A stretch of DNA of 64,000 bases from an uncultured Clostridia bacterium. Its GTDB lineage: Bacteria; Bacillota; Clostridia; TANB77; CAG-508. The stretch is taken from assembly GCA_934120135.1 (NCBI GenBank), contig CAKOTK010000004.1, forward strand, positions 57,862-121,861. The letters run 5' to 3'. The notes beneath the pieces are model-generated. The model saw only the letters and a program-made list of their open reading frames with translations, searched no databases and was not told where the DNA came from. Position numbers and translations under genes: made by a program. Below, in pieces: positions 6,188 through 56,385 of the stretch (position 1 is its first letter; each line of letters starts with the position of its first letter).

Positions 6188-6214
6188 TTTTTATTTCCTT
6201 ATTTTTTATATCTG

Positions 6215-6243
6215 TTGACAATATTATAAAATATATGTATAAT
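6215..6243 (+). promoter_or_regulatory. consensus sigma-A promoter (TTGACA-17-TATAAT) firing into cassette 1
   Basis: TTGACA 6215-6220 and TATAAT 6238-6243. Predicted +1 falls on the ATAGG of the left inverted repeat (6248). Confidence 0.7.
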
Positions 6244-6248
6244 AAATA

Positions 6249-6352
6249 TAGGAAATGAATATCCGCAATAAATGCGGTTACCACTACATATAGTATAACA
6301 ACACATTCGCAAATTGGTAAATAGGAGAATGTGTTGTTATTTTATTCCTTAT
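6249..6352 (+). ncRNA. candidate ~100-nt antisense/antitoxin sRNA of cassette 1
   Basis: Starts at the consensus promoter and ends at hairpin AACAACACATTC..GAATGTGTTGTT plus ATTTTATT. Its 3' end overlaps the convergent small ORF. Confidence 0.45.
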
Positions 6353-6455
6353 CTATTATCATATTTACATATTTTATGTATAAAATCGTCAATAAGGCTA
6401 CGTTTATAGTTATAGAGGTCATAAGGGCTATTACTAAAAATAGTATCAAACTCAT
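6342..6455 (-). CDS. unannotated 37-aa hydrophobic peptide MSLILFLVIALMTSITINVALLTILYIKYVNMIIDKE (type I toxin-like)
   Basis: SD GAGGTGG 8 nt upstream of the ATG. Single transmembrane helix plus charged tail. Below the 60-aa cutoff of the ORF track. Confidence 0.6.
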   Translation of the reverse strand: MSLILFLVIALMTSITINVALLTILYIKYVNMIIDKE

Positions 6456-6537
6456 AAACACCACCTCACTTTCTGATAACTAATGTTATCAAGTGTAGTG
6501 GCAACACATACTACTATGTTCATTTCCTATATTAGTT

Positions 6538-6566
6538 AGTATAATATATCCATTTATAAAAGTCAA
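6538..6566 (-). promoter_or_regulatory. near-consensus promoter (TTGACT-17-TATACT) for the cassette-1 peptide mRNA
   Basis: Minus-strand reading. +1 falls on the right inverted repeat ATAGGAAATGAA (6519-6530). Confidence 0.6.
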
Positions 6567-6591
6567 TATAATTCAAACATTTTTTCGCATT

Positions 6592-8307: not shown

Positions 8308-8333
8308 TTTATTTCCTCTCTATAAAGTTATTC

Positions 8334-8363
8334 TTGACAAATTTTAATCAATTGTTATATAAT
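8334..8363 (+). promoter_or_regulatory. consensus promoter (TTGACA-18-TATAAT) firing into cassette 2
   Basis: TTGACA 8334-8339 and TATAAT 8358-8363. +1 falls near the ATAGG of the left inverted repeat (8368). Confidence 0.65.
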
Positions 8364-8369
8364 AATAAT

Positions 8370-8456
8370 AGGAAATGAAAAACCACAAACGTGGTTTGCC
8401 ATATAAAATGCAAAAAGCGCATCTACAACGGTCAAATTACAGATGCGTTTTTTTTA
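8370..8456 (+). ncRNA. candidate ~87-nt antisense/antitoxin sRNA of cassette 2
   Basis: 5' hairpin AAACCACaaacGTGGTTT. Terminates at bidirectional terminator GCGCATCT..AGATGCG plus T8 (8417-8456). Confidence 0.45.
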
Positions 8457-8461
8457 TTGGT

Positions 8462-8584
8462 TTATTTCTGTTTACTCAAAATTACAGCTAATACTATAAT
8501 TAAGGCAAACGTAATGATAGTTACTCCAATTAAAGAATAATATAATATGTATATTGTTGCAATTAATGATTGTATTTCTACCAT
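8462..8584 (-). CDS. unannotated 40-aa hydrophobic peptide MVEIQSLIATIYILYYSLIGVTIITFALIIVLAVILSKQK (type I toxin-like)
   Basis: Perfect SD AAGGAGGTG 7 nt upstream. The SD can pair with an upstream CCUCC (anti-SD hairpin). Followed by the bidirectional terminator. Confidence 0.6.
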   Translation of the reverse strand: MVEIQSLIATIYILYYSLIGVTIITFALIIVLAVILSKQK

Positions 8585-8669
8585 ACGCCTCACCTCCTTG
8601 TAGGAGGCAAACCACATCTGTCTTTTTCATTTCCTATAATTATATAGTACAACATTTACTTATAAATGT

Positions 8670-11600
8670 CTAGCGAACATTTGAAATTTTTTCCAATACT
8701 TTTTCTTTATTAACATTTGGTATGTAGTTATAATTATTTTTTGTAGTTTGATTAAACTGACAAATCGCCTTATAACTACAATATTCGCAAGGTGTTTTCT
8801 TATCCCTAGTTCTATAATATGGCTCAATTCCAATGTTTCCATTTAAAATTTCTTCTGAAATTTGTTTTATAATTTTTTCCATATAATTTTGCAAGTTTTC
8901 AAATTGTTTTCTATTTAATGTATTTGGTTTGTCACTAACTTCTCCATCTTTGCCTATATATGCTGGTACAACATTAGAACTACCAGATACTAAATTTGTG
9001 TCCATTTTTCTTACAATATTACTATCTGCAAGTATAAGCCCTTGCATTTTAAATTGTTTTCTTAGTTCTTCTGTAATTTCTTCATCTGTCATATTTGGAT
9101 TTGCATTTAATACTGGATCTATTAAGTTAAAATATAATGCCCCTGCTGGTGTTACCTCTTCGTTTTCACAAGCTGCATCCAAATATGTTAATAATTGAAG
9201 TTGCAAACCTGCATACACTTCATTTAAATTTATATTTTTTATTGATGATTTATAATCTATTATTCTAATATAATTTCCATCTGCAGTTTTTGCTATATCT
9301 AATCTGTCAATTTTTCCAATTATCTCAACCTTTTTACCATCTTTTAATTCATATATAATTGGCTCATATTGGCCACCTTGTTTAAATTCAAGTTCATGTC
9401 CTAGCACTTCAAAGTCACTATATTTTAAACTATCTACAATATATTTCATAGATTTTGTAATTACTTTTTTTAACCTTTGAGCTAATATTCTGTATTTTGG
9501 AATACTATTAAATATATCATATTTTTTTAATGTTAGTTTTTCCTCAACAATATTTTCTGTAATTTGTTTTATTTGTTCTTCTTCAATATTTTTTACAGAT
9601 ATGTTTAATTCATCTAATATTTCAAAAAAGCTGTCTATTACTTCATGCATTAAATTTCCTGTATCAACAGCCTCAACATTAAAGCTATCTTTTTCTTTTA
9701 ATTTTAGTCCGTATTTTAAATAATATGAAAAAGCACAAGCTTGATATTGTTCTAGCCTTGACACACTTGTTTTTAAAGTATTACCATATAATTTTTCTAA
9801 TTTATTCTGCTTTAATTTTTCTGGCTCATTTTTATATTGTAAAGCTTTTATTGCTGACTCTAATTTTGTTTTATAATTAGCTTTATAATAATTGTATACA
9901 TCAAACCAAATAGGTTCTATTTCCTCACCCTGTGTAAAATTTCTCAAATTTACTAATAATTCATCAAATGTAGTTTTAGAAAGTAATACTTCACTTTTTC
10001 TTTCTATTACATCACTTTGTTCTTTTATATTAGGAAATATTCTTTTAATTTTATTTATTAATATTGATGCTCTTAAAGATTTTCCTTCTGCATCTGATGA
10101 AGCATAAGATAAATAAAGTTTTTCTTCTGCTGTTGTAAATGCCTTGTAAATATTAAAATTGTCGTCATAAATTTGCTCTATTGTTCCTTTTGCAAGTTCT
10201 ATTCCTTGCTCTTTTAATATATTTCTATCTTTATCATCTAAAAATCCTTCATCTTTTTGTATACTTGGAAAACTTCCATCATTTAGACCTATAATAAATA
10301 CTGCCTTTACTTTATGTGATCTTGAACGGTCTACATCTCCTACCATTACTTGATCTGCAGTTGCAGGAATTGTACCTAAGTCACTTTGATTAAAGCCCAT
10401 TTTTAATATTTTTGCATATCTATCAAAAGTTATATTTTTATTTCCTAAAACTAATACTATTTCATCAAATAAATCGGTTAAAATTTTAATACTTAATTCA
10501 TATTGTTTTGCAATTTCTAGTTCATTATTTTGTTTCAATTCCTCAATTTTTTGTTCTAGCTTTTCATATATATTATTTTGAACTAAAAATTCATATAATC
10601 CAGTTGTTATTTCTTTTACTGTTTTTAATCCTGCTAACTGTTTTTTGAATTTCAAAAGAGGTTCTACAACTTTATCTCTTGCATATACTATTTGCTTTTG
10701 TTGCTCTTCTGTTTCATTATAAAAACTCCACTCTTTTGCATACCATTTACTTCCTTTTATGCCCCATTTTAAGCAATAATTTTCTAATACAGCTATTTCT
10801 TGTGTATCTAAATCTAATAATCCTGTTTTTATATAACCAAAAACAGATTCATAAGACCAGTTCTTTGCAAATATCTCTAGTAAAGATAGTACATATCTTA
10901 CTAAAATATTGCTTCCTAGGTCTTTTTTCTCATCTATAAAAACTGGTATATTATATTGCTCAAAAATTGCTTTGCATAAACTTGAATATGTATCTATATT
11001 TTTTGTAATTACAGCCATTTCTTCATATTTGTAGCCTTGTTTTGCAAGTTTTGTTATTTGTATTGCAACATTTTCTATTTCAGAATATGGATTACTTGCT
11101 AAAAATATAGATAAGTTCTCATTTTGTTTATCGTATTTTTTATAAAAAGGGGATGCCATATTTTCTGCTAGATGTTGTAATTCTTCAGTTTTAAATCTGT
11201 ATGGCGTATTTAGAAAAATTGGTTTTTCTACTTCTATTTGCTCTTGGTTTGCAATTTCTAAAATCCTTTTTACTGTTTGCTTATTGCTATAAAATGTGTC
11301 TATATCAGCATTTGTGTTTTCTTGTAAATTATCTGCACAAATTGTTATTGTAATTTTGTGTGATATTTTCATAAGTTTTCTTAAAATTTCATATTCTTGT
11401 AAAGTGAAACCTGCAAATTCGTCAATATATATATCACAGTTTTTAAATTCATTTGACTCTTCTAACTCTTCTGCCAAAAGAGTTAATCCATCATTTTCAT
11501 CAATATATTGGTTTTGAATTGAATTATTATATAAATCATATAAATTTGTAATATCTTCAAGCTTTTTTTGTAGGTATTTATCTTGAGTATTTTTAGTAAC

Positions 11601-56153: not shown

Positions 56154-56204
56154 ATTAGCACTAGGAATACAAATTAAAAAAATATCCTTTAGGAGGGTTG
56201 TATA

Positions 56205-56385
56205 TATTTAGCGCCAGGACAGTGTTTATACACTGTTGACGAGGTTAGAGCTTATCGAAAGATTCGGCGGATGGCTCTATGGCATGCGTTACTGCCATTA
56301 CATATTAACAAAAAAATTATAGTGATATAATATAACAAATTTAATATGAGTGCGCTTTAATTTGTATGCCTTACTTTAAATTTTA
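56205..56385 (+). ncRNA. glmS ribozyme: glmS ribozyme (GlcN6P-dependent self-cleaving riboswitch)
   Basis: Core AGCGCCAGGAC...GACGAGG...TATCGAAAGATTCGGCGGATG matches the glmS ribozyme P1-P2.2 consensus; located in the glmS 5' UTR. Confidence 0.8.

Follow-up and report, generated by a model that had tools for sequence, protein, structure and literature searches.

Type I toxin–antitoxin (TA) systems are built around a small (<60 aa) hydrophobic peptide with a transmembrane (TM) segment and a charged C-terminus (PMC6563280), and their hallmark is a weak, structurally locked mRNA combined with an antisense RNA made from a consensus promoter (PMC6563280, PMC7472228). In the Gram-positive families the antisense RNA lies on the mRNA's 3' side (PMC8594479). 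Here we describe cassette 2, a unit of ~340 bp found between addB and pgeF in a 64-kb stretch of DNA from an uncultured Clostridia bacterium (the window, 64,000 nucleotides), whose layout matches that of the Gram-positive type I families (PMC8594479, PMC7472228). That cassette 2 is a type I TA-like module is likely, an interpretation well supported by comparative anatomy, and we assign a probability of about 0.6 to the fuller reading, in which it belongs to a large, unnamed type I TA-like family with control by a 3'-overlapping antisense RNA.

The closest described system is par/Fst-RNA II (E. faecalis pAD1; Fst/Ldr family). Like par, the cassette appears to have convergent promoters, a shared intrinsic terminator giving the RNA overlap, a 5' stem-loop that sequesters the Shine–Dalgarno sequence (SD) and an antisense RNA outside the open reading frame (ORF); like Fst, its peptide would be a hydrophobic helix of ~30-40 aa with a charged or polar tail (PMC7472228, PMC8594479). 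The regulatory geometry, however, departs from par/Fst. Whereas the direct repeats DRa/DRb of par produce complementary 5' regions, with the start site blocked, the repeats of the cassette are inverted, so that the 5' regions of its two RNAs have the same sequence, and a common leader with co-evolving arms replaces the complementary 5' ends. Unlike Fst, the cassette 2 peptide has no PXXXG motif (it contains no proline) and does not match PF13955, on which the Fst control scores 8.7e-5. The hhalign probability of a cassette peptide against Fst is 1.3%, and no RNA II-type Rfam family matches the cassette RNAs.

An overlap at the 3' end of the mRNA, an SD within a structured 5' region and a single-helix peptide are also found in bsrG/SR4 and txpA/RatA of B. 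subtilis, which, unlike the cassettes, lie in prophage-like regions and have neither a terminal inverted repeat nor a common leader. SR4 bound at the bsrG 3' end promotes decay and tightens the SD helix, the nearest precedent for control of a 5' structure by an antitoxin bound at the 3' end. The cassette peptides give no match to PF16935 (Hol_Tox) and an hhalign probability of 0.1% against BsrG, with a BsrG sequence verified in SPbeta as positive control (1.8e-8). A likeness between YESLMIMI and IQSLIATI was rejected, as hhalign against BsrG and Fst shows no relation. The type I modules of C. difficile (CD2517.1-RCd8 and others) have clostridial hosts and a convergent overlapping design in common with the cassettes, and their peptides are likewise small TM proteins with a charged C-terminus and no homology to toxins of other bacteria (PMC6563280). 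These modules, compared here by description, are located beside CRISPR arrays or in prophages and encode peptides of 34-59 aa with lysine-rich tails; neither a common leader nor an inverted repeat is reported for them, whereas the cassettes have both.

Cassette 2 is composed of the following elements, the RNA ends and promoters being predicted.

~8334-8672, whole unit, ~340 bp
8334-8363, plus strand, antitoxin-RNA promoter: TTGACA (8334-8339), 18 nt, TATAAT (8358-8363)
8368-8379, plus strand, left copy of the common leader ATAGGAAATGAA, an exact 12-mer
~8370, plus strand, predicted antitoxin 5' end
8370-8456, plus strand, predicted antitoxin small RNA (sRNA) of ~87 nt: leader, 5' hairpin, A/U-rich linker, terminator hairpin, U8
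8380-8397, plus strand, antitoxin 5' hairpin AAACCAC-AAAC-GTGGTTT
8403-8419, plus strand, internal leader-like repeat ATATAAAATGCAAAAAG, read directly from the sequence
8417-8447, both strands, central hairpin GCGCATCTG...CAGATGCGC, GC-rich, 12-bp stem
8448-8455, plus strand, T8 tract after the central hairpin; CTTTTT on the minus strand
8462-8584, minus strand, ORF of the 40-aa peptide MVEIQSLIATIYILYYSLIGVTIITFALIIVLAVILSKQK, ATG at 8584, TAA stop at 8464-8462
8585-8612, minus strand, SD GGAGG (8597-8593) and upstream anti-SD UUUGCCUCC (8612-8603), the SD buried in a 10-bp hairpin
8606-8637, minus strand, right (toxin-side) inverted-repeat arm ATAGGAAATGAAAAAGACAGATGTGGTTTGCC
8637-8626, minus strand, toxin-side copy of ATAGGAAATGAA
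~8637-8635, minus strand, predicted mRNA 5' end
8639-8672, minus strand, weak toxin promoter; family alignment favours TAGACA (8672-8667), 17 nt, TACTAT (8649-8644)
8666-8639, minus strand, alternative toxin promoter TTTATA-16-TATAAT

The features that an earlier note on this DNA had picked out in cassette 2 are all present and exceed chance: ATAGGAAATGAA has four exact copies in the window, all at the ends of cassette 2 and its sister unit, cassette 1, against a chance expectation of 0.07 per window and never more than one in shuffles. The left promoter that the note read as TTGACA-18-TATAAT matches the consensus at 12 of 12 positions, and the ~87-nt RNA with a 5' hairpin that it proposed is predicted to fold at -24 kcal/mol (z = -4.3), none of 200 shuffles being equally stable. 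The leader is single-stranded in this fold. At the gathering score no Rfam family matches the cassette RNAs, and the sole match in the window is a glmS ribozyme/riboswitch (RF00234, 97.8 bits, 56199-56358, plus strand); at E <= 10 the cassette yields sub-threshold noise only, such as RefA9 (21 bits vs 49) and GibS (25 bits vs 115).

On the minus strand, the CCUCC/GGAGG hairpin of the predicted fold spans 8607-8593. The 40-aa ORF stands as the note quoted it, and its product is hydrophobic over ~31 residues in a row and ends, at the C-terminus, in the basic SKQK. After the ORF comes the same central hairpin as on the plus strand, then CTTTTTGCATTTT; the 8380-8397 hairpin, also read on this strand and followed by UUCAUUUCCU, resembles a second, distal toxin-strand terminator. 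In cassette 2 the central hairpin is predicted to be a convincing bidirectional terminator and the minimal overlap of toxin and antitoxin RNAs. The arms of the inverted repeat are 95% complementary over 21 nt (8362-8382/8623-8643) and 82% over 22 nt (8379-8400/8606-8627). The complement of ATATAAAATGCAAAAAG falls on the toxin strand after the central hairpin, where it is able to pair with the mRNA 5' leader, and in the minimum-free-energy fold of a 227-nt mRNA the 5' AUGAAAAAG is paired with the 3' CUUUUUGCAU.

Two further observations concern the reading frames and neighbours of this strand. An AUG within the conserved leader, located 5 nt from the predicted 5' end (8632-8630 and 8375-8377), is found family-wide and begins upstream ORFs that differ in length and frame: 52 codons on the cassette 2 toxin mRNA, a frame shared with the toxin in the MIEA subgroup, and a stop after 13-15 codons in family A. 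The extended database ORFs of 50-76 aa are explained by start codons that lie in frame ahead of the toxin ATG, such as ATG 8617, which gives a 51-aa ORF; exact-sequence look-ups of the 40-aa product, the 51-aa product and PgeF returned no record. Only 26 nt (8308-8333) separate the pgeF start from cassette 2, and no promoter-like minus-strand site was found among them, so pgeF-ldcA may rely on read-through from the toxin or addB side.

The family was collected by two scans. The first, for ATAGGAAATGAA-N(235-265)-TTCATTTCCTAT in one genome per species, returned 82 loci in ~80 gut metagenome-assembled genomes (MAGs), which carry the labels Clostridium sp. CAG/UMGS, Clostridia or Clostridiales and derive from human, rabbit, goat, sheep, deer, chicken and mouse samples. 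The second searched metagenomes by peptide pattern alone, the 12-mer not being used, and found 80 further loci, in which both ends have TAGGAAATG and are spaced as expected; because these loci, retrieved by the peptide only, keep it, the leader is conserved in its own right and is no search artefact. The two scans thus give more than 160 loci from gut Clostridia of low GC (28.5% GC in the gut-metagenome contig of the window). Well over a hundred species-level genomes of these abundant, uncultured bacteria, sampled from human, rabbit, ruminant, mouse and chicken, carry the family. Once oriented by the ORF, every locus of the first scan has the identical order of parts, in a module of ~340-365 bp. 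The layout and the peptide types are as follows.

First half: weak promoter, leader, untranslated region (UTR) of 51-80 nt (covarying hairpin plus GAGGUGGUG or GGAGG), hydrophobic ORF of 30-43 aa
Second half: central hairpin, reverse complements of the sRNA 5' hairpin and then of the leader, opposed consensus promoter
Cassette-2-type peptide: M[IV]E..L..IIYLL..SLVG.TIIAFALII.LVIILSK(QK)
Cassette-1-type peptide: MSFILFLIYALMVS.TINVALLTILYIKYVNSIIDKE; a shorter ...TNKE form exists
Third peptide type: MSIILTLILLY...

The predicted sRNA measures 80-95 nt across the family, and its architecture is shared by 53 distinct sequences. Its promoter, TTGACA-17-(TGn)TATAAT, is followed after 4 nt by the 12-mer, each base being at least 90% conserved, while the mRNA promoter, TTGnnn-17-TGnTATAcT, is weaker. 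The peptides end in SK, SKQK, NKE or DKE. Run against 5.8 billion proteins, a profile of the cassette-2-type peptide recovers 570 clusters, every one of them unnamed or “hypothetical” and without a Pfam domain; five representative cassette peptides have no match in Pfam (E <= 10), NCBIfam, PADLOC or PHROGs, in searches where the BsrG and Fst controls score.

Both the peptide and the RNA structures are under constraint. Within subfamilies, the ratio of nonsynonymous to synonymous polymorphism (pN/pS) is 0.45-0.55 and the second codon position varies least, as expected of a constrained hydrophobic helix. Pairing in the sRNA 5' hairpin is kept with 20 different arm sequences and in the UTR hairpin with 24, and the central stem, whose sequence is wholly different between subfamilies (GCGCAUCUG, ACACAUCUG, CACCACAU, AACAACACAUUC, AGACACUACAUU), always pairs. 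These results come from per-sequence hairpin tallies and per-subfamily consensus folds, which replaced RNAalifold on a MAFFT alignment of 53 antitoxin sequences; the latter yielded no structure because the subfamilies misalign. In the consensus folds of all four subfamilies the SD pairs with an upstream (U)GCCAC(U) or GCCUCC element, which bears out the earlier proposal of an SD sequestered by an upstream anti-SD. The immediate adjacency of the two is a trait of the cassette-2 subgroup, in which a 20-nt deletion placed the anti-SD directly beside the SD.

In every subfamily the central hairpin carries a U-tract on the sRNA strand. Its toxin-strand counterpart is present in some, including that of cassette 2, and weak or absent in most of the family, so that the bidirectional terminator described by the earlier note holds for the cassette-2 subgroup and does not extend to most of the other members, whose likely RNA anatomy differs accordingly. 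The terminator-like call on the toxin strand of both window cassettes is the reverse complement of the sRNA hairpin plus UUCAUUUCCUAU.

In the type I reading, the weak promoter would produce an mRNA whose SD is locked by the upstream anti-SD and which encodes a single-helix membrane peptide of 30-43 aa, the putative toxin. From the opposite strand, the consensus promoter would drive an abundant RNA of 80-95 nt, antisense into the mRNA 3' end, and the duplex over the central hairpin would bring about mRNA decay or a closed mRNA, as in the Gram-positive 3'-overlap systems; were the mRNA to read on, the duplex would cover the whole antitoxin length. We infer the expression, toxicity, RNA ends and mode of repression of the cassette from this anatomy. 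The peptide has the attributes of a type I toxin, being shorter than 60 aa and hydrophobic, with a predicted TM segment and a charged C-terminus, and the antisense RNA has, in silico, a 12/12 promoter, a stable fold and a terminator shared with the mRNA.

The inverted repeat suggests, in addition, pairing between the mRNA 5' leader and a 3' extension that is antisense to the antitoxin, which would make the antitoxin a mimic of the leader. The arms change in concert: ACAGGAAATG is found at both ends in loci L108, L116 and L118-L124, AGAAAATGAG at both ends in L066 (extra copy), L138 and L111/L112, and GTAGGGAATAAG is matched with GTAGGAAATAAG in L069. The identical RNA 5' ends claimed by the earlier note are a family trait, conserved even in peptide-only loci. 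The ~30 nt past the 12-mer, a region that includes the anti-SD element, are also similar between the two ends. Of 62 distinct cassettes, 58 have a 5'/3' duplex that is stabler on the toxin strand (-37.4 kcal/mol, against -30.8 for its counterpart on the opposite strand), and so do 39 of the 40 cassettes in the independent, peptide-retrieved set; the reason is that most arm differences still allow G-U pairs when read on the toxin strand. In that set, arm identity was 0.62 for own pairs and 0.60 for cross pairs, a comparison that is uninformative because most of it has a single arm type. In full-length folds, the ends of an mRNA extended to the distal hairpin pair over ~35-40 nt, at a mean of -37 kcal/mol. 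The concerted arms, the ~30-nt likeness, the strand bias and the U-tract pattern together suggest that at least part of the mRNA reads through the sRNA gene, with its ends then paired.

The full-length mRNA would thus close through a 5'/3' panhandle of 35-40 bp, ending at the distal hairpin and UUCAUUUCCU. Having the same leader and anti-SD-containing arm as the mRNA, and being perfectly antisense to the 3' arm, the sRNA could displace the mRNA leader from that arm, leaving a duplex exposed to RNase III and the anti-SD back on the SD. Since the antitoxin is antisense to a 3' arm that complements the leader, it necessarily copies the leader, and the model would explain why the repeat around the module is inverted and not direct. 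We hold the panhandle and leader-mimic part of the explanation tentatively, at rather less than even odds. More doubtful is the full version, a three-partner competition in which AGGAAAUGA would also be a recognition site for a factor common to both RNAs; the near-invariance of AGGAAAUGA is unexplained by pairing and points to such an additional sequence-specific role. We know of no type I system for which a three-partner competition has been described. If the panhandle or leader-mimic model holds, it would represent a novel mode of mRNA control by antisense RNA.

An mRNA that reaches the distal hairpin would resemble those of hok/sok and AapA1/IsoA1, which have long-distance 5'-3' pairing, here over ~35-40 nt. 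In these systems the end-to-end lock keeps the full-length hok or aapA1 mRNA inert. Their antitoxins target the 5' region, however, whereas that of the cassette would compete with the mRNA leader for the 3' arm. Processing of the hok 3' end is cited in PMC8594479.

Several points weigh against our reading, in whole or in part. All cassette hosts are uncultured MAGs, and the peptides match no known toxin family in the four collections searched. Pairing alone does not account for a leader of 10-12 nt that is near-invariant instead of covarying freely. The toxin-strand U5 tract of cassette 2 is a decent one, so most of its mRNA may end there, without the distal arm. The strand asymmetry is perhaps partly attributable to the antitoxin's need for its own 5' hairpin, and the counts of 58/62 and 39/40 are not independent, as the cassettes are phylogenetically related. 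Two candidate mechanisms were also rejected. A switch that opens the SD is consistent in direction (48 vs 1), but the predicted unpaired probability of the SD is 0.20 in the free state and 0.14 with the 3' arm blocked, an effect on accessibility too small to carry the model. Pairing in trans of the antitoxin 5' domain with the toxin 5' UTR/SD, in the style of par or SprA1, was indistinguishable from shuffles by RNAduplex (mean z = -0.41).

The module behaves as an autonomous unit. Neighbouring genes are oriented at random (40/35 and 35/32), the flanks of family loci are mostly unrelated and there is no conserved partner gene. When the window is compared with ~50 non-syntenic loci, DNA similarity starts at 8328-8358 and stops at 8637-8692, that is, at the two promoters. 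The autonomous type I layout read from cassette 2 alone is in this way borne out in more than 160 loci, in an orientation independent of neighbours. Family-A cassettes 95-98% identical to each other stand in at least six non-homologous contexts with unalignable downstream flanks, two of them in one MAG (L027, L078). The tandem cassettes of L066 occupy 290-663 and 801-1073, the first copy with AGAAAATGAG at both ends, and decayed remnants holding only the antitoxin half are seen in L040 (4172-4401) and L080 (5777-6002). No similar cassette was found in viral contigs, INPHARED phages or PLSDB plasmids. An apparent instance of cassette 2 in a new context, a 99% copy joined to a truncated ddl (D-Ala-D-Ala ligase) in L085 (1873-2781), was set aside and not used as evidence: its junction keeps the last 12 addB codons, and it is most likely a chimeric assembly, otherwise a rearrangement.

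Cassette 1, which belongs to another subfamily, occupies the gap between ldcA and a UDG-family gene (6188-6591) in the window.

6215-6566, cassette 1, whole unit
6215-6243, plus strand, antitoxin promoter
6248-6259 and 6519-6530, the two 12-mers
6455-6342, minus strand, 37-aa ORF
6566-6538, minus strand, toxin promoter

The earlier note had given its peptide 40 aa; family alignments place the start at ATG 6455, which makes it 37 aa. The paralogy of the two cassettes, also proposed there, holds at the DNA level, where a profile of cassette-2-type units matches cassette 1 over its full length (E = 2e-17), and does not detectably extend to the peptides, for which hhalign gives a probability of 4%; the two are highly diverged from each other. 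Comparison of the ldcA-pgeF flanks among relatives, which the note had suggested, showed nine syntenic loci with cassette 2 beside addB (L019, L041, L073, L088-L091, L094, L100). In the eight whose sequence reaches the ldcA-UDG junction cassette 1 is absent, and ldcA is separated from the UDG-family gene by 15 nt (for example, L019 6694-6708 and L041 3713-3727), although the flanking genes are 94-99% identical in aa sequence to those of the window. Both junctions of the filled site show the tetranucleotide TATT, which the empty site has once; at 28% GC this is uninformative as a target duplication. Variable presence of this kind could make the cassette a strain marker.

Among the explanations that dispense with a toxin, the one worth most attention is that the peptide is a small membrane protein with a cis-antisense regulator, maybe an accessory subunit or a stress peptide. 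Its lack of homology to any toxin family, the chromosomal location of all copies, away from plasmids and phages, and a pN/pS of ~0.5, which fits any hydrophobic helix, would all agree with this; but a locked, weak mRNA opposed by a consensus-promoter antisense RNA is a type I hallmark (PMC6563280, PMC7472228), the unit is multicopy, tandem, decayed and variably present, and no partner gene is conserved, so we consider it unlikely. The alternative raised by the earlier note itself, that the region holds no more than the usual promoters and terminators of addB and pgeF and an ORF arisen by chance, is hardly conceivable. The unit does sit in an intergenic gap between co-oriented genes, and pgeF has no obvious promoter of its own, but the left promoter is directed away from pgeF, and the peptide and both RNAs are kept in more than 160 loci with unrelated neighbours and in either orientation, which contradicts it. 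A type I TA-like module remains the reading we prefer for the unit.

The common leader could be a sequence-specific recognition element of both RNAs and not a pairing partner, a view compatible with a type I TA module; candidates would be a ribonuclease or RNA-binding-protein site, a 5' stabiliser, a ribosome docking site or a +1 operator. TAGGAAATG is nearly invariant at both ends in all subfamilies, including peptide-only loci, next to arm sequence that varies; the predicted sRNA fold leaves the leader single-stranded, and the 12-mer is found nowhere else in the window. This view leaves aside the ~30 nt of likeness beyond the 12-mer and the G-U bias of the toxin-strand mismatches, no candidate factor is known, the AGGA is separated from the AUG by only 1-2 nt, less than a normal SD needs, and the upstream ORFs so opened are not conserved; as the whole explanation of the leader it is rather improbable. 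The repeats might instead be transposase or recombinase sites of a non-autonomous mobile element akin to a miniature inverted-repeat transposable element, with the peptide and sRNA as stabilising cargo. The earlier note had suggested that the unit may be repeated or mobile-like, an idea supported to the extent that 95-98% identical family-A copies stand in at least six contexts (two in one MAG) and that the cassette 1 site is filled in the window and empty in eight syntenic relatives; inverted repeats at both ends, discrete homology blocks, and tandem and decayed copies also speak for such an element. A transposition signature (clear target-site duplication or transposase) was not found, the sole candidate duplication being the TATT at cassette 1. 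Moreover, the conserved unit reaches outside the repeats, with the -35 and -10 boxes distal to them, the two window copies are highly diverged, plasmid, phage and viral collections contain no match, and strand-asymmetric mismatches are unexpected for a site acting as DNA, all of which makes a mobile element unlikely. Less probable still is an inverton, in which the 246-259 bp enclosed by the 12-mers would be inverted by a site-specific recombinase, swapping the strong and weak promoters between mRNA and antisense RNA. Perfect inverted 12-mers exactly at both predicted starts, with the promoters outside and reading inward, are what such a switch would need, and recombination between arms would also account for their concerted evolution; yet none of 80 assemblies from different species has the strong TTGACA-17-TATAAT promoter on the toxin side, the orientation is the same in every one of the window's syntenic relatives, at least ten in number, and the strand asymmetry is left unexplained.

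The compact, self-contained unit of ~350 bp would lend itself to use in gut Firmicutes as a part for counter-selection or containment. One family-A subgroup has, in addition, a conserved non-coding block of ~190 nt upstream of the toxin promoter, ~60-250 nt from the toxin-side 12-mer (L010, L014, L022, L027, L055, L059, L065). It begins with GGTRCCAACGAAGTAGTTATCTACAAC and holds a palindrome, GATTGATA-N4-TATCAATC; no ORF, Rfam or tRNA match was found in it, and beyond ~25 nt it is absent from both window cassettes. Finally, several family-A cassettes have tRNA genes at a distance of no more than 1-2 kb (L022 59-141, L027 3773-3849, L055 4282-4481, L065 3667-3749).

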